A DNA stretch of 64,000 nucleotides from assembly GCA_964572255.1 (NCBI GenBank), contig CAZNEE010000001.1, positions 459,587 to 523,586 on the forward strand, written 5' to 3'. Below, one piece after another: positions 2,617-56,150 of this stretch. Positions within the stretch are counted from its first letter, which is position 1. Every line of letters starts with the position of its first letter. The notes beneath the pieces were generated by a model. That model ran no database searches. It was given only the letters and a program-made list of their open reading frames with translations, and was not told the DNA's origin. This DNA comes from an uncultured Planctomycetia bacterium. Lineage in GTDB: Bacteria > Omnitrophota > Gorgyraeia > Tantalellales > Tantalellaceae. Position numbers and translations under genes: made by a program.

Positions 2617-4533
2617 ATGTTCGAATCTATCAAGTTATACACCGGCGAGACAGTTGAGCTGGATGAGATCATCCGGAACCTTGAGCGGTACGACTATAAC
2701 AGGTGCCGGAAAGTCTCGATCGAAGGGGATTACAGCCTTCTCGGAGAGACCCTCATAATTTTTCCCGTCACATTTGAATACCCCGTAAGGATAGATCTTT
2801 CGGACGGCAAGGTAAATTCCATAAAAAGTGTCGATATAGTATCATTCCGCACGATCACGGACCATAAAGGCGTTATCGTTCTTCCCGCGAATATCCTGCG
2901 CCGCACAAAAGTAAAAAAACAGCAGATGGAGCTCGGGGAAAGCCCCATAGATTCTTTTGTGGATATCGAGCCGGGCGATTTTGTTGTCCATATAGATTAC
3001 GGTATAGGAAAATATCTGGGCATGCAGCGCATGCGGCGTGACGGGAAAGTGCAGGATTATTTTGTTATTGAATATGCCGGAGGGGATAAACTGTATGTTG
3101 AGCACGCTGACCTGCATAAACTTCAAAGGTATGTGTCATTTCACAGAAAACCGCATAAGCTCAACAGTCTTAAGGGTAAAAGGTGGCAGAGCGCCAAGAA
3201 CAGGGCGACGAAAGGCGCTGAAAAAATAGCCCGGGATTTTCTGCGCCTGCAGGCGATCAGGGAAAATACAAAAGCCTATGCGTTCAGCAAAGATACCGAC
3301 TGGCAAAAAGAGGTAGAAGATGCCTTCCCGTATAAAGAAACACCGGATCAGATTAAAGCGACCGGGGAAACCAAGCTTGACATGGAAAAGATGCGTCCGA
3401 TGGATAGGCTTCTGTGCGGTGATGTGGGATACGGAAAGACGGAAGTCGCCATGCGCGCGGCATTCAAAGCGGTCATGGATAATAAACAGGTGGCTTTCCT
3501 TGTTCCCACAACCATTTTGGCCGAACAGCACATGGAAACTTTCCAGAAGAGGATGAAGGATTATCCCGTTAACATACAGATGCTGAACCGCTTTAAGACC
3601 CCCTCGGAACAGGAAAAAATAGTCACGGGGGTCAGGGAGGGGAAGATCGATATCGTTATAGGCACGCACCGGCTCCTTTCAGATGATATAAAATTCAAAG
3701 ATCTGGGGCTTCTTATCATCGATGAAGAGCAGAGATTCGGCGTTAAACAAAAAGATAAAATAAAGAGGATGCGTGTTAATGTTGATATCCTTACGCTTAC
3801 TGCCACGCCCATACCCAGAACCCTTTATCTTGCTCTCATGGGGGGCAAAGACATTTCGATGATAGAGACGCCGCCTTTGGAAAGGATACCTGTTCATGCC
3901 AAGGTCATAGAATTTGACAAGAAGGTCATCAAAGAAGCCATCAGGAAGGAATTAGAGAGGAAGGGACAGGTTTATTTTGTGCACAACAGGGTCGAATCGA
4001 TAGACAGAATAGCCTCTGAAGTAAAAGCTCTTGTCCCGGAAGCCAGACTTATGGTGGGGCACGGCCAGATGAGCTCAAAAATGCTTGAAGAAACCATGGT
4101 AAAATTCATTAAAGGAGAAGTGGATATTCTGGTATGCACGACTATCATAGAATTCGGGATAGATATCCCTAATGCGAATACCATGATACTGAATCAGGCG
4201 GACAAGTTCGGTTTAGCGGATCTTTATCAGCTTAAAGGCAGGATAGGAAGATTTGACAGGCAGGCTTTCGCGTATCTCGTTGTCAGGGATTTTGGTTCAT
4301 TGACGGGCGAAGTAAGAAAACGATTGGAGGTTATACAGAAATACCATGAGCTGGGTTCCGGGTTTAAAATAGCCATGCGGGATCTTGAGATGAGAGGAGC
4401 CGGCAATATTCTGGGAATAGAACAGAGCGGCTTCATTGACTCGATCGGTTTTGATCTGTATTGCCGCCTGCTCCGGGAAGAAATCTCAAAGCTCAAGGGG
4501 GACGCCCCATTCGGGGACACCCTACATAGCTAA
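2617..4533 (+). CDS. mfd: Transcription-repair coupling factor Mfd, short form of 638 aa. It has an RNAP-interaction-like region followed by the superfamily 2 (SF2) translocase module. The UvrB-homology N-terminus and the D7 C-terminal domain are absent.
   Basis: The stretch FPYKETPDQIKATGETKLDMEKMRPMDRLLCGDVGYGKTEVAMRAAFKAV...LVPTTILAEQH matches the Mfd translocase module almost residue for residue. The helicase motif QLKGRIGRFDRQAFAYL and the TRG-like region (RDLEMRGAGNILGIEQSGFIDSIGFDLYCRLL) are present. The ORF ends inside a repeat element at 4497-4522. Confidence 0.8.
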   Translation: MFESIKLYTGETVELDEIIRNLERYDYNRCRKVSIEGDYSLLGETLIIFPVTFEYPVRIDLSDGKVNSIKSVDIVSFRTITDHKGVIVLPANILRRTKVKKQQMELGESPIDSFVDIEPGDFVVHIDYGIGKYLGMQRMRRDGKVQDYFVIEYAGGDKLYVEHADLHKLQRYVSFHRKPHKLNSLKGKRWQSAKNRATKGAEKIARDFLRLQAIRENTKAYAFSKDTDWQKEVEDAFPYKETPDQIKATGETKLDMEKMRPMDRLLCGDVGYGKTEVAMRAAFKAVMDNKQVAFLVPTTILAEQHMETFQKRMKDYPVNIQMLNRFKTPSEQEKIVTGVREGKIDIVIGTHRLLSDDIKFKDLGLLIIDEEQRFGVKQKDKIKRMRVNVDILTLTATPIPRTLYLALMGGKDISMIETPPLERIPVHAKVIEFDKKVIKEAIRKELERKGQVYFVHNRVESIDRIASEVKALVPEARLMVGHGQMSSKMLEETMVKFIKGEVDILVCTTIIEFGIDIPNANTMILNQADKFGLADLYQLKGRIGRFDRQAFAYLVVRDFGSLTGEVRKRLEVIQKYHELGSGFKIAMRDLEMRGAGNILGIEQSGFIDSIGFDLYCRLLREEISKLKGDAPFGDTLHS

Positions 4534-4604
4534 CAACATCATAACTTTTACAAAAATTTTATATTTATTTAATCTTATAGGGTGTCCCCGAATGGGGCGT
4601 CCCC
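4497..4604. repeat. MITE-like element, copy 1. It has perfect 25-bp terminal inverted repeats (GGGGACGCCCCATTCGGGGACACCC / GGGTGTCCCCGAATGGGGCGTCCCC) flanking about 57 bp of AT-rich interior.
   Basis: The inverted repeat can be read directly on both arms. The left arm encodes the last residues of Mfd (DAPFGDTLHS-stop). A second copy sits at 42931-43026. Confidence 0.6.
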
Positions 4605-8935: not shown

Positions 8936-10396
8936 ATGAAAGATATTTTATCCGGCATAAACACATACAAGGAATGGCTTAAAGAGCAGTCAGGATCCTT
9001 CGCGGATGCTGCTCTCTTCCTGACCAGCAGAATATCCAAGCTTGATAAAGATGTGAACGCTTTTATTGAGATTGACAAGGAAGGAATAACCAAAAATGCC
9101 GAAGAAATCGATGCCGCATCAGCCGAAGGCGTTTTAAGAGGCGTACCCGTAGGGATAAAAGATAATATTTGCATAAAGGGCCGGCTTACCACGTGCGGGT
9201 CGCATATTCTTGAAGGTTTCAGACCTCCTTATAACGCTACAGTAGTAGATAAACTTAGATTCGTAGGCGCGCTTTTAATAAACCGCGCTAACATGGATGA
9301 ATTCGCCTTCGGTTCTTCCTGCGAAACTTCTTATTACGGGCCGACAAAAAACCCGTGGGATACCAAACATATACCCGGGGGTTCAAGCGGCGGTTCTGCC
9401 GCGGCGGTAGCTGCCGGCGAGGTTGTTGCGGCTTTGGGTTCGGATACAGGCGGCTCCATACGTCAGCCTGCATCGCTTTGCGGGGTCGTCGGATTCAAAC
9501 CGACATACGGCCGGGTATCAAGATATGGCCTTATAGCTTTTGCGTCGAGTCTTGACCAGATAGGGCCCATTACGCGCAATATCGAAGATTGCGCTGTAAT
9601 GCTTGAAGCTATATCGGGATATGATGAGAAAGATTCAACTTCGGTCAATAGGGAAGTGCCCCGTTACACAGAAAGCCTTTCAAAAGATATTAAAGGAATG
9701 AAGGTAGGTATCCCGAAAGAGTATTTCATTGAAGGCATAGAGCCGGGCGTGAAAGCCCGCGTTGAAGAGTCGATAAATGTTTACAGGGATCTCGGCGCCG
9801 AGATAGTGGATATCTCGCTCCCGCATACCAAGTATGCGGTAAGCTGTTATTACATAATCGGCCCGGCTGAAGCGAGCTCTAATCTGGCCAGGTATGACGG
9901 CGTTCATTACGGATACAGGAACAGAAAAGCCAATGATATTATCGACATGTATATCGCCTCGCGCAATGACGGGTTCGGGGCGGAAGCGAAACGAAGGATA
10001 CTTCTTGGGACGTACGCTCTCAGTAGCGGATATTATGAAGCGTATTACCTGAAAGCGCTGAAGGTGCGCACGAAAATAGCCGATGATTTTAGTGATGCAT
10101 TTGAACAATGTAAAGTCATTCTTACTCCCACATCACCGACAACAGCGTTCAAAATAGGTGAAAAAGTGGAGGATCCGCTCCAGATGTATCTGTCGGACAT
10201 ATTTACGATCCCGGCGAACCTTGCGGGTCTTCCTGCGGTCTCTATGCCTTGCGGAGTTGACGAAAAAGATCTCCCGGTCGGGCTTCAGCTCATGGCTCAG
10301 CCTTTCGATGAGGAGACTTTAATAAAAGCAGCACATGCATTCGAACGCAGCACTGAGCATCATAAGCTTGTGGGGGAGAAAATTTTGAAAAAATAG
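8936..10396 (+). CDS. gatA: Glutamyl-tRNA(Gln) amidotransferase subunit A.
   Basis: The amidase signature GGSSGGSAAAVAAGE...GSDTGGSIRQPA is present in a 486-aa product. Confidence 0.9.
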   Translation: MKDILSGINTYKEWLKEQSGSFADAALFLTSRISKLDKDVNAFIEIDKEGITKNAEEIDAASAEGVLRGVPVGIKDNICIKGRLTTCGSHILEGFRPPYNATVVDKLRFVGALLINRANMDEFAFGSSCETSYYGPTKNPWDTKHIPGGSSGGSAAAVAAGEVVAALGSDTGGSIRQPASLCGVVGFKPTYGRVSRYGLIAFASSLDQIGPITRNIEDCAVMLEAISGYDEKDSTSVNREVPRYTESLSKDIKGMKVGIPKEYFIEGIEPGVKARVEESINVYRDLGAEIVDISLPHTKYAVSCYYIIGPAEASSNLARYDGVHYGYRNRKANDIIDMYIASRNDGFGAEAKRRILLGTYALSSGYYEAYYLKALKVRTKIADDFSDAFEQCKVILTPTSPTTAFKIGEKVEDPLQMYLSDIFTIPANLAGLPAVSMPCGVDEKDLPVGLQLMAQPFDEETLIKAAHAFERSTEHHKLVGEKILKK

Positions 10397-10406
10397 AGTG
10401 AATAGT

Positions 10407-10475
10407 GAGTAGCGGGTGTCTTTAGTGGGAGGATCCACACTGGGCGGAGGGGCCCACGAAAGGCACCCGGTACTC
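10407..10475. repeat. Intergenic hairpin element carrying the conserved 29-nt core GGGAGGATCCACACTGGGCGGAGGGGCCC (copy A; core at 10427-10455).
   Basis: The core matches 25141-25169 with one substitution and is the reverse complement of 37940-37968. The flanking arms GAGTAGCGGGTGTCTTTAGTGGG and CCCACGAAAGGCACCCGGTACTC are near-complementary. Confidence 0.5.
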
Positions 10476-10504
10476 GCATTTTTACTTTTTATAATAAAAT
10501 TGTT

Positions 10505-11947
10505 ATGGCTAAAAATTACGAGACTGTCATAGGATTGGAAGTTCACGTCCAGCTTTTAACAAAGACCAAAGCTTTCTGTGGATGCAGTACGGCTTTTGGA
10601 GCCAGGCCCAATTCACAGGTCTGTCCGGTCTGCCTCGGGCTTCCCGGGGTTCTTCCGGTACTTAACAGGAAAGCTTTCGAATATGCCATAAAAGTCGCTC
10701 TTGCGCTTGATTGCGATATACAGAAAACAGTAAAGTTTGACCGGAAAAATTATTATTACCCGGATCTTCCTAAAAATTACCAGATCAGCCAGTTCGACAT
10801 GCCGATCGCTTATAACGGCAAGATAGTGTTATACGCCGATACCGATAACCCGAAAGAGATCGGCGTGACACGCGCCCATCTTGAGGAGGATGCCGGCAAA
10901 CTCCTTCATGACGAGAACGCACCTTTCAGTTATGTCGATCTTAACAGGACCGGCACACCGCTTCTTGAGATAGTTTCCGAACCGGACATAAGAACTCCCC
11001 AGGAGGCGTACGATTACCTTGTTTCCTTAAAGAGGACGATAAAGTACCTTGAAGTGTCCGATTGCAACATGGAAGAAGGAAGCCTCAGATGCGACGCCAA
11101 TATCTCCATACGGGAAGAGGGGGATAAGAAGTTAGGGAGTAAGGTGGAAATAAAAAACCTCAATTCTTTTAAGGCCGTTAGGGAGGCGCTTGCGTACGAG
11201 CGCCAAAGGCAGATAGAGGCAATAGAAGACGGGGAGAAAATAATACAAGAGACTCGTTTATGGGATGAGAAAAAGAACATCACTTCATCCATGAGGACAA
11301 AAGAAGAGTCCCATGACTATAGGTATTTCCCGGAACCCGACCTTGTCCCTTTTGAGGTTAAACCGGAAGTGATCGATAGGGTACGCGAAACGATGCCCGA
11401 ACTCCCCGATAAAAAAGCTCAAAGGTTCATCAGAAAATATAAGTTGGATGAAAAAGATATCGAGGTGCTAATATCCGAAAAGGACATCGCTATCCTTTTT
11501 GAAGATGTGGCGGAAAAATTAAAAGATCCACAGTCTGCGTGTAATTGGATAAAAGGCGAAGTGATGAAGCACATCAATGAAAGAGGGACCGATGTAAAGG
11601 GTTTGCAACTTGACCCCGGACATCTTGCCGAAATCATAAAAATGGCCAAAGACGGCACTATCAGCGGACTTGCGGCGAAGGATGTCCTTAACAGTTGCAT
11701 TGACACGGGCAAATCTCCCGTTTCCATAGTAAAGGAAAAAGGACTCCAGCAGGTTTCTGACGAAGGCCAGCTGGATGAAATTGTCGTAAAGGTGATCGCC
11801 GAAAATGAAAAGTCGGCCAACGATTTTAAGGGCGGGAAAGAAAACGCTTTAAGCTTTCTTATAGGGCAGGTCATGAAGCATTCGGGAGGAAAGGCCAATC
11901 CTAAACTTGCCGGCGATATGCTTAAGAAAAAGATCCTGGGAGGATAA
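10505..11947 (+). CDS. gatB: Glutamyl-tRNA(Gln) amidotransferase subunit B.
   Basis: The N-terminus MAKNYETVIGLEVHVQLLTKTKAFCGC is diagnostic for GatB. The product is 480 aa with a GatB/YqeY C-terminal domain. Confidence 0.9.
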   Translation: MAKNYETVIGLEVHVQLLTKTKAFCGCSTAFGARPNSQVCPVCLGLPGVLPVLNRKAFEYAIKVALALDCDIQKTVKFDRKNYYYPDLPKNYQISQFDMPIAYNGKIVLYADTDNPKEIGVTRAHLEEDAGKLLHDENAPFSYVDLNRTGTPLLEIVSEPDIRTPQEAYDYLVSLKRTIKYLEVSDCNMEEGSLRCDANISIREEGDKKLGSKVEIKNLNSFKAVREALAYERQRQIEAIEDGEKIIQETRLWDEKKNITSSMRTKEESHDYRYFPEPDLVPFEVKPEVIDRVRETMPELPDKKAQRFIRKYKLDEKDIEVLISEKDIAILFEDVAEKLKDPQSACNWIKGEVMKHINERGTDVKGLQLDPGHLAEIIKMAKDGTISGLAAKDVLNSCIDTGKSPVSIVKEKGLQQVSDEGQLDEIVVKVIAENEKSANDFKGGKENALSFLIGQVMKHSGGKANPKLAGDMLKKKILGG

Positions 11948-13296: not shown

Positions 13297-14096
13297 CCAA
13301 AAGAGCGGTATTTACAACAATAGTCATACTCGCCGCTATCGCGGCGCTTCTTTTGAAGTTCGGCCCCTTTTATGAAAGAAGAGAACGGGAAGGGATCATC
13401 GAGGGCAAGCCGGACATCGCGTATAAACCTGCCGTAGCCATTGTTCTGGATGATTTCGGATATACCGAAAAAAACCTGAAAGACCTCAAGAGGATCAACG
13501 CGCCTGTGACCATAGCGGTCCTTCCCAACACTCCTTACTCTGAAAAGGTGAGCTCTTTTGCCGGGGATAACGGCATGGAAGTGATACTTCACCTTCCGAT
13601 GGAACCCATGGATCAAAGAGAAGCTCTTGAGGAGGATACCATCAGAGCGGATATGAGCGAGAGGGAGGTAAAACATATTATCGATAATTCGCTTAGATCT
13701 GTCCCTGGGGCTGTAGGCGTTTCAAATCATATGGGGTCCAAGGCCACAAAAGATAAAAAAATAATGGGGATCGTTCTGGATGATATCTACGGAAGGGGAA
13801 TGTTCTTTCTGGACAGCCGCACCTCTAAAGGATCTGTTTGCGGATATATTGCTGAGAAAAAAGGCATGCAGATCGCCGAAAGGGATATTTTTATAGATAA
13901 CGTAATGGATAAAAAAGAAATAGCTGAGAGATTAAAAGACCTGGAGAAAGAAGCCGTATCAAAAGGGTTTTGTGTGGCAATAGGCCATGACAGAAGCCTT
14001 ACCATTGAGGTTTTAAAGAGGATCGTACCCGAGATGCAGGAAAAAGGAATAAAGTTTGTCAAACTGTCGGAACTGGTCAAGGGGCGCGGCCGATGA
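13293..14096 (+). CDS. Divergent polysaccharide deacetylase family protein (YibQ-like).
   Basis: A TM/signal N-terminus is followed by AIVLDDFGY...AVLP...HLPMEP...GVSNHMGS, a motif set typical of the YibQ/divergent polysaccharide deacetylase family. Confidence 0.6.
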   Translation: MTKRAVFTTIVILAAIAALLLKFGPFYERREREGIIEGKPDIAYKPAVAIVLDDFGYTEKNLKDLKRINAPVTIAVLPNTPYSEKVSSFAGDNGMEVILHLPMEPMDQREALEEDTIRADMSEREVKHIIDNSLRSVPGAVGVSNHMGSKATKDKKIMGIVLDDIYGRGMFFLDSRTSKGSVCGYIAEKKGMQIAERDIFIDNVMDKKEIAERLKDLEKEAVSKGFCVAIGHDRSLTIEVLKRIVPEMQEKGIKFVKLSELVKGRGR

Positions 14097-23337: not shown

Positions 23338-24408
23338 ATGTTTGAAGAACTTAAGAGAAAAAAAGAGCTTTACCATAAGCTCGAGAAAGATCTGTCTTCT
23401 CCCGAATGTCTTTCCGATCGTGAGCAGTACAAGAAGAAGTCTAAGGAGTATGCTGACCTAAAAGAGCTTATTGCTGAATACGACAGGTATCTCATGCTCG
23501 AGAGAGAAAAAGAGTCTCTGGCGAAGATGCTTGAAGATGAAGCCGAGAACAGCGAATACGCCCAGCTGGCGCAAAAAGAGCTGGAAGGCGTGCTCCAGGC
23601 AATAGAAAAGAAGACCAAGCAGCTTGAAGATCTTTTGCTTCAAGAGGACACGCCGGAATACAAACGAAATGCCATCATGGAAATAAGGGCCGGTACCGGC
23701 GGCACGGAAGCGAGTCTATTTGCCGCGGATCTTTATAAGATGTACACGAAATATGCCGCTAACAAGGGCTGGAAAACATCCGTCATCAGTTCCAGCGGAT
23801 CGGAATTAGGCGGCATAAAAGAGATCATATTTTCTGTTGAAGGACATAGCGTATTTAAGCACCTTAGATTTGAAATGGGAACTCACAGGGTACAGCGTGT
23901 TCCGGAAACAGAAGCAAGCGGACGCATACATACTTCCGCGGCGACGGTAGCTGTTCTGCCGGAGGCGGAAGATGTTGATGTGGAGATCAATCCACAGGAT
24001 CTGAGAATTGATGTTTATAGAGCTTCGGGAGCCGGCGGTCAGCATGTAAATGTGACCGATTCGGCGGTGAGGATAACTCACGAACCCACAGGGATCGTGG
24101 TGAGCTGCCAGGATGAACGCAGCCAGCATAAAAATAAAGCGAAAGCCATGCGCGTTCTAAAAGCGCGCATTTTAGAAGAGATGACCAGGAGACAGCAGCA
24201 GGAGATCTCTGAAAAAAGAAAAAAACAGGTAGGATCGGGCGACAGGTCAGAAAAGATACGCACGTATAATTTCCCCGAGAACAGGGTTACTGATCACAGA
24301 ATAAACCTTTCCCTGTACAATCTCGCGAATATTATTGAAGGCGATCTTGACGAATTGATAGATTCGCTTGAAGAAGAAGACAGAAACTTAAAGCTTAAGA
24401 GCGTGTAA
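23338..24408 (+). CDS. prfA: Peptide chain release factor 1.
   Basis: The GGQ motif ([11 protein letters not shown]) and the RF1-type PxT motif region are present in a 356-aa product. Confidence 0.9.
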
Positions 24409-25103
24409 TGAGAATTTATTCCGAAACAGTTCCGGTGCAGTACGAAGAAGGCAGAACTCACTTTTGCGGAATGGATATCCTGGTCGATGAAAGGGTATTT
24501 ATCCCGCGGCCGGAAACGGAACTGGTGGTATCAACAGTTATCGATCTTTGTCAGAAAAAAAGTTTAAAGGATCCGTTCATACTTGATGTGTGTACGGGAA
24601 GCGGGGCGATATCGATAGCGCTGGCTAAGCATGTTCCCTCATCCCGGGTGATAGCCGTGGATATCTCGGAAGATGCCCTGCAAGTTGCCCGGGCAAATGC
24701 AGTCAGAGCGGGAGTTGAGAAAAGCATAACTTTTTTCCGTTCCGATATGTTCGGCGCTTTATGTCCGGATTATAAAGGGATGTTTGATGCAGTGGTTTCA
24801 AATCCGCCTTATGTATCAGCCGGTGATTATCAAAAAGCGGATGCCTGGGTCAAGGCGGAACCCGAAATAGCTCTATTGGCAGGCGATGAGGGCATGGATC
24901 ACTTGAATATTTTGGCTGAGGAAAGCGGAGACTTTCTTAAAGCGGGAGGATTTCTGGCGGTCGAGATCGGGTACGACCAGTCAGAAAAGGTCAAAAGAGC
25001 TTTTTTATCCGCGGGCTATGAAAATATAAGCCCGCACAAGGATTTCAACGGTTACGAACGTGTTATAACCGGAGAAAAGCCTCAGCGGAAAGAGATATAT
25101 TAA
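24408..25103 (+). CDS. prmC: Release factor glutamine methyltransferase.
   Basis: The SAM-binding motif ILDVCTGSGAISIALA and the NPPY motif (VVSNPPYVS) are present. The gene follows prfA. Confidence 0.8.
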   Translation: MRIYSETVPVQYEEGRTHFCGMDILVDERVFIPRPETELVVSTVIDLCQKKSLKDPFILDVCTGSGAISIALAKHVPSSRVIAVDISEDALQVARANAVRAGVEKSITFFRSDMFGALCPDYKGMFDAVVSNPPYVSAGDYQKADAWVKAEPEIALLAGDEGMDHLNILAEESGDFLKAGGFLAVEIGYDQSEKVKRAFLSAGYENISPHKDFNGYERVITGEKPQRKEIY

Positions 25104-25118
25104 ATTAGGATTTGTGGA

Positions 25119-25191
25119 TTTGCTTGTTATGTTTCGTACAGGGAGGATCCACACCGGGCGGAGGGGCCCTGGTAGAAATATAACAAGCAAA
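25119..25191. repeat. Intergenic hairpin element carrying the conserved 29-nt core (copy B; core at 25141-25169, GGGAGGATCCACACCGGGCGGAGGGGCCC).
   Basis: The 12-bp flanking stem TTTGCTTGTTAT / ATAACAAGCAAA encloses the core. The core differs from copy A by a single T to C change. Confidence 0.5.
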
Positions 25192-25208
25192 TTGAGAGAT
25201 GCGAATTT

Positions 25209-26474
25209 ATGGATAAATTATTAGTAGAGGGCGGCAGGAGATTAAAGGGAAGCATAAAGGTGAGCGGCGCTAAGAACGCTTGTCTTCCGATAATGGCGGC
25301 GTCACTTTTGACCGGCGAATCCTGCACGATAAGGAACATCCCGGACCTTAAAGATGTCTCTACAATGATAGAGATATTGGCGGCTTTAGGGCGCAAGGTC
25401 AAACGTGAAGGTGACGTGCTTCGCATTGAAGAAGGCGAGGCAACCAGCCAGACAGCTCCTTATGAACTGGTAAGCACAATGCGCGCTTCCATCGTTGTTT
25501 TGGGGCCGCTCCTTTCGAGGTACGGAAAAGCAAGGGTTTCTTTCCCGGGCGGATGCGTGATCGGCCCAAGGCCGATCGATCTGCATTTAAAGGGATTGAG
25601 AGCGCTCGGTGCCGATATCCGGATCGATGAAGGATACATTGTTGCCGGCGCGAAGAAGCTCAAGGGGACCAGAATTTATCTGGGCGGGCATTTCGGATCA
25701 AGCGTTCTTGCGACAGCAAACACGCTCATGGGGGCGGTTCTGGCAGAAGAAGAGACTGTCATAGAAAATGCCGCATGCGAACCCGAGGTAGTGGACCTGG
25801 CGAATTTTCTGATCGCAATGGGAGCGTACATAAAAGGCACCGGAACGCCGACGATCAGGGTTAAAGGAGTGGATAAATTAAGAGGTGTTGATTATTCCAT
25901 CGTTCCGGACAGGATTGAAGCCGGAACTTATATGATAGCCGGTGTTTTGACTGACGGAAGGCTCTTTCTTGAAAATGCAAGATTGGAGCATAACCTTGCT
26001 TTGGTGGACAAACTTCAGGAATGCGGCGCGGCGGTTGAAGAGAAGGAGAACGGGCTGGATGTCTACAGGAACACCAGAACCGTCCGGCCTACGGATATAA
26101 CGACTCTTACATATCCGGGGTTCCCGACCGATCTGCAGGCGCAGATAATGAGTCTATTGACATTAAGTGACGGCATCAGCGTAATTACGGAAAAAGTATA
26201 TCCTGAAAGATTTATACATATAAGCGAGCTCAACAGGATGGGAGCGAACATCATCCTTGAAGGTTCAACCGCTATTATCAAGGGCGTCAAGAGATTAAGC
26301 GGCGCGCCGGTAATGGCATCGGACCTAAGGGCCTCCGCGGCGCTTATACTTGCCGGCCTTGTTGCCGAAGGCGCTACCGAGATCTCCAGGATATATCACT
26401 TAGACAGAGGTTACGAGCATATAGAAGACAAACTATCGGCTGTAGGAGCAAAGATAGAAAGAATAAAAGAGTAA
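25209..26474 (+). CDS. murA: UDP-N-acetylglucosamine 1-carboxyvinyltransferase.
   Basis: The N-terminus LLVEGGRRLKGSIKVSGAKNA is typical of MurA. The product is 421 aa. Confidence 0.9.
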   Translation: MDKLLVEGGRRLKGSIKVSGAKNACLPIMAASLLTGESCTIRNIPDLKDVSTMIEILAALGRKVKREGDVLRIEEGEATSQTAPYELVSTMRASIVVLGPLLSRYGKARVSFPGGCVIGPRPIDLHLKGLRALGADIRIDEGYIVAGAKKLKGTRIYLGGHFGSSVLATANTLMGAVLAEEETVIENAACEPEVVDLANFLIAMGAYIKGTGTPTIRVKGVDKLRGVDYSIVPDRIEAGTYMIAGVLTDGRLFLENARLEHNLALVDKLQECGAAVEEKENGLDVYRNTRTVRPTDITTLTYPGFPTDLQAQIMSLLTLSDGISVITEKVYPERFIHISELNRMGANIILEGSTAIIKGVKRLSGAPVMASDLRASAALILAGLVAEGATEISRIYHLDRGYEHIEDKLSAVGAKIERIKE

Positions 26475-32475: not shown

Positions 32476-33291
32476 ATGGAAAAAAATAAGTTTACCGTTC
32501 TTGATTTCGGAAAGAAGAAAACGAGCGGACAGAAAATAACAATGCTGACCGCGTACGATTATCCCATGGCTCAGCTTGTGGATAAAGCCGGTATTGATGC
32601 AATACTGGTCGGCGATTCATTGGCCATGGTCGTGCTCGGTTATGATTCAACGACGCAGGTAACAATGGATGAGATGATACACCACTCAAAAGCTGTTTGC
32701 CGGGGATGTAAACACGCGTTTGTCATAGGCGACATGCCTTTCATGTCGTATCAGGTAAGCGATGAAGAGGCCATACGCAATGCCGGCAGGTTCATAAAAG
32801 AAGCCGGATGTGATGCGGTCAAGATCGAAGGCGGAGCCGAAGCGTGCGGACGTGTAGAGGCGATAATCGCTGCCGGCATACCGGTTTTGGGGCATATCGG
32901 GCTTACTCCCCAGAGCGTAAGCAAGCTCGGAGGATATAAAGTGCAGGGGAAGGACGCGAAATCCGCAGGGAAACTCTTAAAAGACGCGAAAGCGCTTGAA
33001 GAGTCAGGCTGTTTTGCCGTCGTCCTTGAATGCATACCGAAAAGCCTTGCCGAGGAGATCACGGGCAAGCTGAAGATCCCGACCATCGGTATAGGCGCAG
33101 GCGCGGGTTGTGACGGACAAGTGCTTGTTACCCATGATGTTGTCGGATATTTTGACAGATTCACGCCTAAATTCGTCAAACAATATGCGGATATTAAAGA
33201 GGAAATACTGAGAGCCGTAAAAACTTTTAAAGATGAAACCGAATCGGGGACTTTTCCCGATAAAGAACATTCCTATGAGATCATACCTTGA
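32476..33291 (+). CDS. panB: 3-methyl-2-oxobutanoate hydroxymethyltransferase.
   Basis: The motifs ITMLTAYDYPMAQL and GHIGLTPQSV are present. Confidence 0.85.
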   Translation: MEKNKFTVLDFGKKKTSGQKITMLTAYDYPMAQLVDKAGIDAILVGDSLAMVVLGYDSTTQVTMDEMIHHSKAVCRGCKHAFVIGDMPFMSYQVSDEEAIRNAGRFIKEAGCDAVKIEGGAEACGRVEAIIAAGIPVLGHIGLTPQSVSKLGGYKVQGKDAKSAGKLLKDAKALEESGCFAVVLECIPKSLAEEITGKLKIPTIGIGAGAGCDGQVLVTHDVVGYFDRFTPKFVKQYADIKEEILRAVKTFKDETESGTFPDKEHSYEIIP

Positions 33292-36848: not shown

Positions 36849-36982
36849 GCGTCAAATAATCCTTCTAAAATTCCATTCAAATTATAATAAAAAATATGTA
36901 CACAACTATTGTTAAGAGAACAAAAATTGACATCAATCAGTTTTTCTGATACAATATTTAAGTTGGTTTAGTTTTTCGGACA

Positions 36983-37174
36983 ATGAAAGGAGCATTCGTG
37001 AAATTTTTATGTCCCGTTTGTGGAAAATTATTTCGCAGAGACCTAATGCTTATAATACGTCATACAGAAAAGCATATCATAGACGCGATAAAGAAAAGCC
37101 ACCCCGAATGGAAGGACACCGAAGAACTTGATCGGAAGTGTTATGAATATTATAGAAGTCAACTCCACTTTTAA
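36983..37174 (+). CDS. Small CxxC protein (hypothetical, 63 aa).
   Basis: A CPVCG motif sits near the N-terminus. The gene is flanked by long AT-rich intergenic regions. Confidence 0.3.
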   Translation: MKGAFVKFLCPVCGKLFRRDLMLIIRHTEKHIIDAIKKSHPEWKDTEELDRKCYEYYRSQLHF

Positions 37175-37301
37175 CCCCCGCAAGTAAGATCATACATTTT
37201 TATTTTTATCATTTCCTGTTTTCCGCAATCTACGTTATAATCATATAGTCATTTTCTGAAATATCAGTGCATATGATCCGAGCTATCAGAGGGAGGGCTA
37301 T

Positions 37302-37904
37302 ATGAGAAAGATCCTGGGAGTGTTGCTTACAGCACTTATTGCGGTTTCTTCGATCGCATTTGCCGATGAATGGAAGGACCTGATAAACGAGGCATATAAG
37401 CAGATGCCTTCAAAATCAAAAAGGAAGACCAGATCGGGCAGGAGGATCCTTCAGGAAAAAGTGAACAGGATACAGGATATCGACAGGCGTATCCCTCAGC
37501 TTATAAGGGGAGGCGACTATTCCCGGGCTGAAGATCTGTTAAAGGAATCTTTGAGCCTTACCATAGAATATTACGGCGGGATGAACCATATCCATGTAGC
37601 CGAAAGGTTCCTCTCACTCGGCATTGTGTACATGGAAGCGGGGAATCCTCAAAAAGCCGAGGAAGCTTTTACCTGGTGCTTAAACATCGGCGAGAAGATC
37701 CTGGGTAAAGGCAGTTACCAACTCTCGAATGTTTACAAATTTTTAGCCATTGCCTATTATGAACAGGACAAATATACGCGGGCAGCCGAGATGGCGGATT
37801 TTCTCCTGTCGATCTATGTGAGCAAGTTCGGGCCTAACAGCGCGCAGGCAGAAGAGGCAAAAGCTCTCTTAAAAACAATTTATCAAGCACAGGGTAAACG
37901 ATGA
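37302..37904 (+). CDS. Secreted TPR-repeat protein.
   Basis: The signal peptide is MRKILGVLLTALIAVSSIAFA. TPR-like repeats include AEDLLKESLSLTIEYYG and KAEEAFTWCLNIGEKILG. Confidence 0.55.
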   Translation: MRKILGVLLTALIAVSSIAFADEWKDLINEAYKQMPSKSKRKTRSGRRILQEKVNRIQDIDRRIPQLIRGGDYSRAEDLLKESLSLTIEYYGGMNHIHVAERFLSLGIVYMEAGNPQKAEEAFTWCLNIGEKILGKGSYQLSNVYKFLAIAYYEQDKYTRAAEMADFLLSIYVSKFGPNSAQAEEAKALLKTIYQAQGKR

Positions 37905-37917
37905 TATTTGTATTATA

Positions 37918-37990
37918 CAGAGTAATATATTTCCTACCAGGGCCCCTCCGCCCAGTGTGGATCCTCCCTGTACGGAAACATATTGCTCTG
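37918..37990. repeat. Intergenic hairpin element carrying the conserved 29-nt core in reverse orientation (copy C; core at 37940-37968).
   Basis: GGGCCCCTCCGCCCAGTGTGGATCCTCCC is the exact reverse complement of the copy A core. The flanking arms CAGAGTAATAT and ATATTGCTCTG are near-complementary. Confidence 0.5.
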
Positions 37991-38055
37991 TTAAAAACAT
38001 CCTTCATTGACAAACCATCGTTGATAAATTATAATTAACATTCACTTTGATTTGC

Positions 38056-38132
38056 GGCGGGGTAGCTCAGCTGGTTAGAGCGCACGGCTCATACCCGTGT
38101 TGTCGACGGTTCGAGTCCGTCCCCCGCTACCA
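38056..38132 (+). tRNA. tRNA with a CAU anticodon. It is elongator Met or the lysidine-modified Ile2 type; the initiator type is unlikely.
   Basis: The cloverleaf is acceptor GGCGGGG/CCCCGCT (G1.U72), D-arm GCTC-AGCTGGTTA-GAGC, anticodon stem CACGG/CCGTG with loop CTCATAC, and T-arm GACGG-TTCGAGT-CCGTC followed by A-CCA. The anticodon stem lacks the three consecutive GC pairs of initiator tRNA. Confidence 0.8.
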
Positions 38133-40591: not shown

Positions 40592-40620
40592 TTCAAGGAT
40601 ATATTGCCAGAATAAAAAAT

Positions 40621-40649
40621 AGCCCGCCGTGAAAGGCGGGCTATTTTTT
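40621..40649. terminator. Bidirectional intrinsic terminator between convergent hflC (+) and lpxD (-).
   Basis: AGCCCGCC-GTGAAA-GGCGGGCT is a perfect 8-bp GC-rich stem. It is flanked by an A-run on the 5' side and a T-run on the 3' side. Confidence 0.6.
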
Positions 40650-41661
40650 ATTCATCAGAAACTTCTCTTAATAATTTTCTCAGCTTTTTGGAGTGTTTCT
40701 CAAGCCAGGATAGAAAAGCCAGTTCACTTTTAGATTTTTTTGCGTCTTTGGCCGGATAGCCGAAGATGGTCTCATTGTCCCTGATAAGGCCTATGACTCC
40801 GGACTGCGCGCCTATTTTAACATTACTGCCTATTTTTACGTGATCCGCCACGCCGACTTGTCCTCCTACCAGGGTTCCGTCGCCTACGCTTGAACTTCCC
40901 GCGATGCCGGTTTGGGCGGCGACCATGACGTTCCTGCCGATCTTATCGTTATGGGCGATCTGGACAAGATTATCCAGTTTCGATCCTTTTCCTATGACCG
41001 TGGTTGTGAATGTACCTCTGTCTATACAGGTATTCGCGCCGATCTCTACTTCATCTTCTATGACTACATTGCCCAGCTGAGGCACTTTATAGACTTTGCC
41101 TTCACGGCTGACATACCCAAAACCGTCAGCGCCTATGACAGAACCGGAGTGGATGCCGACTTTATTTCCGATCACGGTAAGATCGTAGATGGTAACGTTC
41201 GGATAAATTTGCGTTGAGGCGCCGATCTTCACGTTTTTTCCTATTACGCAATTTGCCCCGATAGAGGAGTTGTCGCCTACAGTCGTATTTTTTCCGACGA
41301 TAGCATAAGGCCCTATTGAAACGTTTTTACCGAGCTTTACATTCCCGGCTAGAACCGCTGTTTTGTGTATTGTGCCTTTTGCAGGGGGCTTATTATTCTC
41401 TATGATGTTATAAAGCATCGTTACGGCTAATTTCATGTCCTTAACCAGGATGGCTGTTTTAGCAAGATCCGGCGCTTCACCGGCAGTGAGCACGCATGAA
41501 GCCGCGCTTTTACCGGCTTCTTCAAAGTTTTTTTCGTCCGCAATAAATGTTATTTCGCCTTCTTTCGCGAAAGAAGGGGCGGACATGCCGTGTATTTGCG
41601 CGTTACCGTCTCCGACGACTTTCCCGTCCAGCAATTTTGCTATCTCATTTACAGTTATCAT
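40648..41661 (-). CDS. lpxD: UDP-3-O-acylglucosamine N-acyltransferase.
   Basis: The N-terminus [15 protein letters not shown]...IHGMSAP is followed by a left-handed beta-helix with hexapeptide repeats. The product is 337 aa. Confidence 0.85.
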
Positions 41662-42004: not shown

Positions 42005-42970
42005 GTGAAAATATTAGTTACAGGCGCGACAGGTTTTATCGGTCAAAGATTTGTCGAAAGTATCCTGCCGGAGGGAAATGAGATCTTCTCGCTTGTGAGA
42101 AAAACAAGCAAGGTTGATTTTTTAAAAAAGGCGGGAATTTCTCTCATTACTGCGGATATAGCAGACCGGGAGGAAGTGGAGAAAGTCTTTTCCGAGGTTC
42201 GGCCCGATGTTACGGTGCATTGTTCCGCCAGCGTCACTTCAGGTGATGAAGATGAGCTTTATAAAGCTAATGTGGTCGGAACCGAAAATATTTGCTCTGC
42301 GTGCTTGAAATATTGCACGGATCGCCTTGTATATCTAAGTTCGGTTTCGGTGGTAAGCGGAAATACCGAAACTCCCCTAAGGGATGATATGCCGTATAAA
42401 GCCACAAGCGCTTACGGCCGGTCAAAAATAGAAGCTGAAAAAAAAGTTTTAAGATACAGGGACAAAGGGCTGCGCGCGGTCGTACTCAGGCCGTGCATGG
42501 TTTACGGGGAAGAAGAACCGCATGCACTTGATAAAATACTCCGGAGGGTATCAAAAAGACTGGTTCCGGTGATCTCCATGCCGGGAGTGAAGGACAAGCT
42601 GCATCTGGCATATATTGATAATGTTGTAGATGCGATGCGGCTTGCCATGGGAAAGCCTCAAGCGCTTTCGGGTACGTTTATCATCGCCGACAGGGAGATA
42701 ATATCGATAAGAAAATTTATTGAGATCCTCTCCGATGAGCTTGGCGCGGGAAAACCTTTCGTGATACCGGTTTTTTTAGTTAAGACCGCTCTTATAGTCC
42801 CGTTTATAAGGAAAAAATTCAACAGGATATTTAAAGACAGGATATATGATATAAGCCGGGCAGTTAGCGAGCTTGGCTATGACCCAAAGATCTCGACCGA
42901 AGAGGCTTTAAGAAAAACCGCTCGGTATTGGGGGACGCCCCATTTGGGGACACCCCACAAGGGAGAATAA
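42005..42970 (+). CDS. NAD-dependent epimerase/dehydratase (extended SDR).
   Basis: The Rossmann motif ILVTGATGFIG and a YxxxK catalytic motif are present. The C-terminal residues (WGTPHLGTPHKGE) are encoded by the MITE-like element. Confidence 0.75.
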   Translation: MKILVTGATGFIGQRFVESILPEGNEIFSLVRKTSKVDFLKKAGISLITADIADREEVEKVFSEVRPDVTVHCSASVTSGDEDELYKANVVGTENICSACLKYCTDRLVYLSSVSVVSGNTETPLRDDMPYKATSAYGRSKIEAEKKVLRYRDKGLRAVVLRPCMVYGEEEPHALDKILRRVSKRLVPVISMPGVKDKLHLAYIDNVVDAMRLAMGKPQALSGTFIIADREIISIRKFIEILSDELGAGKPFVIPVFLVKTALIVPFIRKKFNRIFKDRIYDISRAVSELGYDPKISTEEALRKTARYWGTPHLGTPHKGE

Positions 42971-43026
42971 GCATAAAAAATTATACTTGGTTAGCTATAT
43001 GGGGTGTCCCCAAATGGGGCGTCCCC
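42931..43026. repeat. MITE-like element, copy 2. It has perfect 26-bp terminal inverted repeats (GGGGACGCCCCATTTGGGGACACCCC / GGGGTGTCCCCAAATGGGGCGTCCCC).
   Basis: The terminal repeats can be read directly. They match copy 1 except for one position (C versus T at the centre). The interior is the approximate reverse complement of copy 1's interior. Confidence 0.6.
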
Positions 43027-43037
43027 CTTCAAATGAT

Positions 43038-52420: not shown

Positions 52421-52422
52421 TA

Positions 52423-52454
52423 GGGACGGTTATAAGAGGAAATAAAACCGTCCC
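52423..52454 (+). terminator. Conserved 3' hairpin immediately after the PEP-CTERM 1 stop codon.
   Basis: GGGACGG-(18-nt loop)-CCGTCCC overlaps the stop codon TAG. Counterpart GGGACG...CGTCCC at 53681-53714 follows PEP-CTERM 2. No T-tract follows, so it may be a stabilising or processing hairpin rather than a terminator. Confidence 0.3.
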
Positions 52455-52855
52455 TAAAGGGCAAAGTTATGCAAGCTTATGTGTTCTTTGTCTTTTTCTT
52501 TTTTAATCCCTTCAGTATTTCATCTCCATTTATTGATAATATGATTCCGAAAGCTTTCTTTGTTCAAATGCTTTTCTTGACGCTTTTTTTCTAACATTTT
52601 GAGGGGTGTTAAATAAACTCCTCGCCCTGTAGGGCTCGTCGAACATATTTAACACTTTTTCCCTCAAAAGTTATAAAAAAAGCTGAAAAGCATGATTCAC
52701 TCAGAAAACTTCCGGAATCATTTCGTAAATGACAGGGGCGATTCTTAATAAGGAAGAAAGTCCCTGTAGGACAACCGGGAAAATTTTTAAGTATTTCAAA
52801 CAAATAACTTACAAATTATTTGATCCTGCCTTAAATTGAAATAATTCCTGAAGGT

Positions 52856-52884
52856 TTGCCGATCAAGACAAAATATGATATACT
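52856..52884 (+). promoter_or_regulatory. Sigma-70-type promoter (TTGCCG-17 nt-TATACT) for PEP-CTERM gene 2; duplicate of 51620-51648.
   Basis: The spacer ATCAAGACAAAATATGA and the -10 hexamer are identical to copy 1. Confidence 0.45.
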
Positions 52885-52973
52885 TTAAGTGATAATAAAG
52901 TAAGCTCGAATCGGGAAAAATATTTTATAAGGGGCGCACCATTCGAAGGAATGGGTAGCTGAAAAATATGTTA

Positions 52974-53681: not shown

Positions 53682-53828
53682 GGACGTTTCCAAAAATAAT
53701 CCCGGAAGCGTCCCTAAGGTCAAAGCCAGACCTGTCCCCATCACGGGGGAGAATTATTTTTGTCTTTTTTTTATACCCTCACCACTTACTTCAAATTCTT
53801 TTTTTAATAAAGATAGTTTTATATTGCT

Positions 53829-54039
53829 CACGGGAAAGATGAGCTTTTGGAGTGAATACGATTTTTAGGCATTTATTTGGTTTTTTAAGGTAAATTACCT
53901 ATTTTTGCAACTGTTTGAGCCGGATGAGCTAATAATATGGAAATGATCAGCGAAGCAGGCGAGTTTTGCAAAACCTTAAAAAGGCAAATAAATGGCGTTA
54001 AGAAAATCGTCTGAACGGGAAAAGCTCATCTTTCCCGTG
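53829..54039. repeat. Roughly 210-bp long palindromic element (MITE-like or structured RNA). A perfect 20-bp terminal inverted repeat, CACGGGAAAGATGAGCTTTT / AAAAGCTCATCTTTCCCGTG, encloses nested complementary segments.
   Basis: The terminal repeats lie at 53829-53848 and 54020-54039. The inner pairs are CATTTATTTG/CAAATAAATG, TTAAGG/CCTTAA and TTTTGCAA/TTGCAAAA. Confidence 0.5.
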
Positions 54040-54130
54040 TACTATAAAAAACTTGACTTATCTCACCTTATAATGTAATCTTTTACTAAGGATGGATAGT
54101 TAACAAAAATGTTAATTATGTATATTTAGC

Positions 54131-56012: not shown

Positions 56013-56150
56013 TGCCCTGAAAATTAAGATATAAAATAGTTATATTAATTATAATTGACATATTTGCTCCTATATGTTAACATAATAAAAAGCTATTTTT
56101 AGCTAAATTTAACTATAATTAATATATTATATTAATTGGGTTGGCGCACA

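Follow-up and report, generated by a model that had tools for sequence, protein, structure and literature searches.

Three hairpins in a 64,000-nt stretch of contig CAZNEE010000001.1 from an uncultured bacterium of the Omnitrophota (this whole stretch is the window in what follows) carry at their apex a 29-nt sequence that differs between them at a single position. We consider it probable, at roughly 0.6, that they belong to a selfish, non-autonomous family of palindromic repeats in Candidatus Omnitrophota, i.e. to a mobile hairpin. The element is of the selfish palindromic kind, alongside repetitive extragenic palindromes (REPs), MITEs (miniature inverted-repeat transposable elements) and Rickettsia palindromic elements (RPEs), and its architecture is inverted, with a conserved tip and free stems. 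The initial annotation of this DNA had listed a REP-like repeat, or bacterial interspersed mosaic element (BIME), among its options, and the family indeed behaves as a dispersed, inserted repeat. Its phylum-wide distribution, its two subfamilies, its in-frame insertions into genes and its intrinsic strand asymmetry lay beyond the view of that annotation.

A scan of the window with the pattern GGGAGGATCCACACYGGGCGGAGGGGCCC returned exactly the three matches that had been reported, two on the plus strand (10427-10455 and 25141-25169) and one on the minus strand (37940-37968), including the one substitution in copy 2. The number expected by chance in the window is 0 (100 shuffles). No further match to the pattern occurs in the window at up to three mismatches, and blastn-short on the window did not detect diverged copies of the 29-mer beyond these three. 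All three 29-mers form the apex of a hairpin of 73-77 nt, and folding bore out the initial placement of the core at the hairpin tip with strongly negative z-scores. The features are as follows, types A and B being the two subtypes of the family described below.

10405-10477, plus strand: hairpin of copy 1, 73 nt, degenerate type B; -46.3 kcal/mol, z -6.35
10427-10455, plus strand: apex of copy 1, 29 nt, GGGAGGATCCACACTGGGCGGAGGGGCCC; exact match to the pattern
25117-25193, plus strand: hairpin of copy 2, 77 nt, type A, with a GUA/GUA internal loop; -40.2 kcal/mol, z -6.29
25141-25169, plus strand: apex of copy 2, in which core position 15 is C and not T; match to the pattern
37917-37991, minus strand: hairpin of copy 3, 75 nt, type A, with the G-rich strand on the minus strand; -35.9 kcal/mol, z -5.61
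37940-37968, minus strand: apex of copy 3; match to the pattern

Copies 2 and 3 have 41 nt in common (25135-25175 versus 37934-37974) and belong to one subfamily, whereas copy 1 belongs to the other; the outer arms of all three are unrelated in sequence. The flanks had initially been described as self-complementary but different in each copy. This stands for their self-complementarity and for copy 1, which is distinct, but not in full for copies 2 and 3, whose arms are only partly different.

To define the family beyond the window, we scanned one genome per prokaryotic species with the 22-nt sub-pattern GGATCCACACNGGGCGGAGGGG. The scan yielded at least 111 stretches holding at least 123 copies from at least 35 assemblies, most of them labelled Candidatus Omnitrophota and one of these being a single-cell genome; a few carriers are labelled Planctomycetia, Deltaproteobacteria, Bdellovibrionota or just 'bacterium'. 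The closed chromosome OY764265.1 is one of the few carriers outside the Omnitrophota. In all, the family numbers at least 126 copies. The carrier loci that we measured range in GC content from about 0.40 to 0.69. The metagenome-assembled genome (MAG) JBDRFA01 alone contributes 31 loci with at least 39 exact-core copies among the matches listed. The 22-mer has 0 matches in 2.9 million viral contigs, and the searchable literature gave no relevant match, neither for the sequence in full text nor for Omnitrophota combined with repeat or hairpin. The repeat family is real and abundant and, so far, appears to be undescribed.

Two subtypes can be told apart by their layout. Type A, to which window copies 2 and 3 belong, reads ...CCGUAC-N-GGGA[core]CCC-N'-GGUAGG..., and type B, of which window copy 1 is a degenerate form, reads GCGGGUGAC...GA-R-Y-GGGA[core]CCC-R-Y-GAG...RCAGGNCCCGC. 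Both subtypes contain a conserved non-Watson-Crick loop five bp below the purine-rich loop of the apex, which is formed by G·A/U·U/A·G in type A and by tandem G·A in type B. The GGTAGG of type A lies in the 3' arm opposite CCGTAC and is part of this internal loop rather than a terminal tag.

The tip and the arms of the hairpin evolve in very different ways. An alignment of 108 copies gave mean pairwise identities of 99% in the tip and 41.5% in the arms, the former value being inflated because the copies were picked by the tip pattern (exact 22-mer). Two checks lessen this concern. A Hamming scan of the same 785 kb, with up to eight mismatches allowed, added only five copies outside the pattern, which differ from it by 2-6 bases. 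When type A copies were instead found through their arm motif CGTAC...GGTAG, 64 of the 69 contained the exact 22-mer and the other five were one or two positions off. One tip variant, GGAU->GCCU, would turn the purine-purine oppositions of positions 6/7 with G24/G23 into C-G pairs and therefore fits the predicted apex register. The arms, in turn, covary strongly. Among 65 type A copies, 89.3% of the cells are paired, versus 41-56% when the partners are slid by 1-3 columns; both sides are changed in 301 cells, double changes occur at 18 of 19 outer pairs, and the observed score was reached by none of 500 shuffles. Columns 15-66 may serve as an example, as they covary through G·U intermediates (GC 27, AU 12, GU 10). 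The hairpin shape is kept by compensatory change, and the 29-nt tip and the G·A-type internal loop five bp below it are kept in sequence. The initial proposal that selection acts on the non-palindromic core is supported by these data: the core hardly varies across these assemblies, whereas the arms, which taken singly are not palindromic, covary. Direct reading of the tip revealed no stop codon in any of the six frames and two GGAGG/GGA motifs. We compared the tip by eye with the K-turn, the T-loop, the G-quadruplex, the signal recognition particle RNA, RNase P, 5S RNA and the anti-Shine-Dalgarno sequence, and none of these likenesses was convincing.

The two strands of the element are not equivalent. 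The G-rich strand folds better than its complement in 96 of 120 copies. Among the mismatches in the arms, purine-purine oppositions dominate, and G·T outnumbers A·C by 151 to 63 (binomial p 1.6e-9, for copies that are not independent). This excess is alike whether a copy is sense (42:16) or antisense (25:7) relative to its host genes, so that the asymmetry belongs to the element itself and is not imposed by host transcription. This is what one would predict if propagation of the element required the folding of a single-stranded intermediate with a fixed polarity. The orientation of the copies, which the initial annotation had proposed to determine together with their number, is random with respect to genes: between co-directional genes, 27 copies are sense and 21 antisense, and a further 14 and 10 lie between divergent and convergent genes, respectively. 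It is random with respect to the local GC skew as well (47 of 108). A bias in orientation, which a cis-acting RNA or an IS200/IS605-like insertion into the lagging-strand template would lead one to expect, was thus seen neither against genes nor against GC skew.

In the window, the three hairpins reside among housekeeping genes, and the gene contexts given initially were confirmed. Copy 1 separates gatA (Amidase/GatA, 8936-10396) from gatB (10505-11947). Copy 2 follows RF-1 and a PrmC-like methyltransferase gene (24408-25103) and precedes murA (MurA-type EPSP_synthase, 25209-26474). Copies 1 and 2 are both sense relative to their operons. Copy 3 follows the gene of a TPR protein (37302-37904) and ends 16 nt before the -35 box of the promoter of tRNA-Met(CAT) (38056-38132); this is a perfect consensus sigma-70 promoter (TTGACA, 17 nt, TATAAT) at 38007-38035, 20 nt upstream of the tRNA gene. 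The window is compact: 57 of 60 open reading frames (ORFs; greedy selection) lie on the plus strand, many gene pairs overlap by 4-8 nt, most intergenic gaps are below 30 nt or negative, and the hairpin element accounts for two of the few gaps above 100 nt. GC skew and AT skew are positive across the whole window.

Comparison with related loci reveals empty sites for two of the copies. In the closest relatives available for copy 1 (L114, L143 and L122; 66-67% GatB identity), gatA and gatB abut, versus a spacer of 108 nt in the window. The orthologs of the prmC-like gene and murA overlap by 8 nt in L052 (ATGGATAA), versus the hairpin-filled spacer of 105 nt around copy 2. Conversely, L095 carries a copy between genes that overlap (ATGA) at 14093-14096 of the window, and L102 carries one where the window genes are adjacent (~33272-33275). 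A metagenome scan for GatB relatives found none closer than 67% identity, and none of its 80 loci contained a copy. The idea that the core landed in pre-existing palindromes is rejected, as the relatives lack the entire spacer together with the arms. Some genomes contain nearly uniform sets of copies. JBDRFA01 harbors units of ~195 nt that are 93-97% identical, with the hairpin at their center, terminal inverted repeats of ~27 bp and mostly TA at their flanks, and JBFZAV01 harbors eight near-identical type B copies with sharp common ends. Such sets within one genome indicate recent bursts of multiplication. Judged from these sequence comparisons, the copies are insertions: they are scattered in both orientations, occupy spaces between genes and at times sit in-frame inside a gene, and have multiplied recently within single genomes.

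Several copies sit far inside long ORFs of genuine genes. Same-frame Pfam domains are found on both sides of the element in a CCA-adding enzyme (L012), in CobQ (L055) and in a MiaB-like radical SAM protein (L041), and further in-gene copies lie in a cytochrome c assembly protein (L036) and in YfhO (L043). These copies use all three frames, and 6 of the 7 examined are antisense to the mRNA. In the alignment of the CCA-adding enzyme with PDB entry 3wfo_A there is a break, with residues 267-313 of the query facing residues 288-306 of the chain, and the element-encoded peptide therefore corresponds to ~28 extra residues between domains. The same locus contains a fragment of group II intron domains D1-D4 (L012 1-112; Rfam RF01999, 86 bits), which lies 1.5 kb away from the in-gene copy and has no established link to it.

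Several loci show more complex arrangements. In L010 (5459-6120; MAG CAYQUS01), three copies with the same left flanks lie 209 and 431 nt apart and are part of a local tandem segmental repeat. In L109 (3264-3532), the hairpin is part of a larger unit of ~260 nt that is bounded by inverted TTAGGTTCTTGATGGCC sequences and adjoins the palindrome GTCATTCCAGCGAAAGCTGGAATCC (reverse translation ...PAFAGMT...), which is another widespread small repeat. In L016 (minus strand, ~2390-2560) and L100 (6673-6850), the right arm is swapped for a different palindromic repeat of ~150 nt (...GATCCGTGAATAGTTTATGGTGAATGG...). The left arms of these two copies differ, yet the junction is identical and lies directly after GGAGGGGC, which suggests recombination or targeted insertion at the tip. 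Elsewhere, in L027 and L097, the ~150-nt GATCCGTGAATAGTTTATGGTGAATGG repeat is likewise preceded by GGAGGGGCAG.

How might such a hairpin propagate? The combination of an asymmetric tip that does not vary, stems that covary and non-canonical pairs that are strand-specific points to a folded single strand that is read by a conserved factor. The element may be copied through a single-stranded form of its G-rich strand, either DNA or RNA, which would fold into the hairpin. Recognition of the invariant tip and the non-canonical loop would then fall to a protein that acts in trans and is conserved throughout the phylum, with the arms required only to pair; candidate agents are a HUH/RAYT-like nuclease (RAYT, REP-associated tyrosine transposase), a hairpin-specific recombinase or reverse transcription. 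The options of a 'small structured RNA' and a 'protein-binding site' in the initial annotation may then describe how the tip is recognized. A bolder version, which we regard as possible though unlikely, is that the family represents the first 'tip-recognized' mobile hairpin, a folded module of RNA or single-stranded DNA consisting of the 29-nt apex, the sheared G·A loop and a stem whose sequence is free, and that it entails a new mobilization mechanism or a co-opted RNA- or single-stranded DNA-protein module. A protein conserved in Omnitrophota would in that case copy the element by a mechanism unlike those of REP/RAYT, of MITEs driven by DDE transposases and of known retroelements, possibly by reverse transcription or nicking primed from the loop, and the host could have co-opted the invariant tip as a protein-binding RNA site.

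Several observations weigh against the selfish mobile hairpin. Its movement we infer only from presence and absence among relatives at 66-75% identity and from near-identical paralogous copies. When ORFs within 1.5 kb of the copies were clustered, no protein family occurred in more than four loci and no mobilizing protein was found. The eight near-identical type B copies of JBFZAV01 show no direct target duplication, and the TA on either side of the 195-nt JBDRFA01 variant may simply extend the inverted repeat; being self-complementary, TA is in any case ambiguous as evidence of a duplication. The conservation of the tip is somewhat inflated, since all copies outside the window stem from loci picked for an exact 22-mer; among the secondary copies in these loci, 12 of 17 are exact and 5 of 17 differ by 2-6 bases. 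The mismatch statistics overstate independence because the copies are related. Finally, an invariant center with variable ends is the reverse of what is seen in transposase-bound MITEs and REPs, and a host function for the tip is therefore possible.

Such a host function could be provided by a structured RNA, i.e. a transcribed hairpin that binds a conserved RNA-binding protein or nuclease via its tip and G·A loop and acts as mRNA stabilizer, processing site or regulator, with its spread being secondary. The element does contain RNA-like motifs (tandem sheared-type G·A, a purine-rich 4x4 loop, G·U intermediates and more G·T than A·C), copies 1 and 2 of the window run in the sense direction of their operons, and the tip holds the two GGAGG/GGA motifs. 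However, the family as a whole prefers no orientation relative to flanking genes, the G·T bias is the same in antisense copies and hence not set by host transcription, and nearly all in-gene copies examined are antisense to the mRNA. The copies are lineage-specific insertions and not conserved features of particular genes. Moreover, Rfam 15 gave no match at its gathering threshold over any copy in the window and 17 loci, a search with copy 1 at E<=10 returned only generic hairpin matches to miRNA precursors far below threshold, and the window copies have neither a promoter nor a terminator associated with them. We consider this explanation quite unlikely. The ORF-free gaps of the window at 310-918, 36849-37301, 52421-52967 and 53682-54130 also contain no Rfam matches. 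An ordinary MITE of an IS630/mariner-type DDE transposase, with the arms as terminal inverted repeats and the tip as a passive leftover, would account for the JBDRFA01 units with their central hairpin, ~27-bp terminal inverted repeats and TA flanks, and a classical MITE family with perfect 25-bp ends is present in the window, too. Yet the ends differ wholly among copies of one genome, as in window copies 1-3, and the arms are 41% identical around an invariant center; the eight fresh type B copies have sharp ends without duplication, and a transposase acting on double-stranded DNA leaves the strand-specific mismatch pattern unexplained. An ordinary MITE is, in our judgment, very unlikely.

The same mismatch pattern speaks against a double-stranded binding site for a nucleoid or topology protein, comparable to IHF or to gyrase at BIMEs, in which the palindromic arms would be incidental. 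Asymmetric 29 bp that stay invariant across genomes, at sampled loci of ~40% to 69% GC and in random orientation, would suit such a site. The strong compensatory evolution of the ~20 bp stem and the strand-specific wobble and purine mismatches nevertheless indicate a folded single strand, and the in-frame copies in genes resemble tolerated selfish insertions and not placed sites, which makes this option, in our estimate, a shade less probable again. Intrinsic terminators and chance or assembly artefacts are effectively refuted. Copy 1 is followed by TTTTTACTTTTT, as a terminator might be, but copies 2 and 3 have no T-run, a terminator scan found none at the three window sites, copy 1 lies within the gatCAB operon and orientation is random family-wide. 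An origin by chance or misassembly is at odds with an expectation of 0 and with a family present in at least 35 independent assemblies, including that of a single cell. Elsewhere in the window, a perfect 19-bp inverted repeat (GAATAAAAAATAGCCCGCC / GGCGGGCTATTTTTTATTC; 40610-40653) between convergent genes looks like a bidirectional terminator.

If the hairpins are indeed selfish mobile elements, what do they mean for their hosts? The only likely consequence in the window is the presence of stable hairpins within the gatCAB and prfA-prmC-murA transcripts (-40 to -46 kcal/mol for copies 1 and 2) and just upstream of the tRNA-Met promoter; effects such as translation uncoupling, RNase III cutting or altered mRNA stability are speculative. 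Omnitrophota are uncultured, mostly ultra-small bacteria with compact genomes. A repeat that wedges itself between overlapping genes and into the coding sequence of a compact genome has either a strong selfish drive or a tolerated function. Finding the factor that recognizes the tip could reveal a new mobilization mechanism or a new protein that binds RNA or single-stranded DNA. In practical terms, the 29-mer can be used as a phylum-level marker for binning and tracking Omnitrophota, and searches for structured RNAs, like the annotation of proteins with element-derived inserts, require that the element be masked. At its end, the window also contains a giant ORF of at least 2,621 codons (56136-63998), which runs off the window; giant genes have reportedly been found in Omnitrophota, going by the title of a bioRxiv preprint (10.1101/2023.11.21.568195).

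We finally compared the family with known classes of repeats and found, as with Rfam, no known repeat class that matches it. It is not a CRISPR array, as the initial annotation had already stated, since the window copies lie 12.7-14.7 kb apart and one is inverted. REPs are 20-40 bp long and carry a terminal GTAG/CGTC tag (PMC3733652); their stem is conserved, the tag is unpaired at one end, REPINs are inverted pairs of REP units, and RAYT tyrosine transposases mobilize them (PMC3733652, PMC3337134). The omnitrophotan hairpins resemble REPs and REPINs as high-copy extragenic palindromes with some copies inside genes, and type A contains GGTAGG in a non-Watson-Crick loop. They differ from REPs in being a single hairpin of 73-100 nt with variable stems and an invariant 29-nt apex, in place of a short conserved stem. 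The GGTAGG of type A, which could correspond to the GTAG tag, sits in an internal loop, and type B, including window copy 1, has no such tag. Many species have the tip in common, unlike REPs, which are often species-specific. In the sampled DNA (fragments of up to 8 kb around the copies), no RAYT was found, and tblastn of IS200 TnpA against this DNA gave no credible match, which is a weak test.

Like MITEs and selfish repeats in general, the family is multi-copy and non-coding, and its presence varies at orthologous sites. Bacterial MITEs, e.g. the Correia elements of Neisseria, are small non-coding foldback repeats that insert in operons and are co-transcribed. The omnitrophotan element is likewise a small foldback repeat in operons, and in its 195-nt JBDRFA01 variant a center that looks functional lies between terminal inverted repeats with TA flanks. 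In contrast to MITEs, in which the ends are conserved and the center is variable, the arrangement is reversed here, no clear target duplication was seen, and shared terminal inverted repeats are absent at an arm identity of 41.5%, with the exception of the JBDRFA01 subfamily. The second, unrelated palindromic family of the window (4498-4604 and 42930-43027) has the classical MITE layout, with a variable AT-rich center between perfect 25-nt terminal inverted repeats (GGGGACGCCCCATT[CT]GGGGACACCC; 4 matches, 0 expected).

RPEs, reportedly described by Ogata et al. in 2000, are palindromes of ~100 nt that lie between genes and in-frame inside genes. The hairpin family shares with them its palindromic nature, a size of ~100 nt, its dispersal and its in-frame presence in genes at tolerated positions, and in neither is a transposase encoded or identified or a target duplication obvious. 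They differ in phylum and probably in sequence, and RPEs are conserved over their full length, while here only the tip and the small internal loop are.

For the way in which the tip may be read, the closest functional analogy is offered by the origin hairpins of geminiviruses, circoviruses and rolling-circle replicons and by the attC sites of integrons. Their loops are shorter, with ~9-13 nt compared to a 29-nt tip that has its own internal structure, and they reside in replicons or cassette arrays, whereas the omnitrophotan copies occur dispersed between housekeeping genes, and neither a Rep nor an integrase gene lies close to them. In origin hairpins and attC sites, too, the stem varies yet pairs and a folded single strand is recognized, the cue being an invariant loop in the former and strand-specific unpaired bases in the latter.
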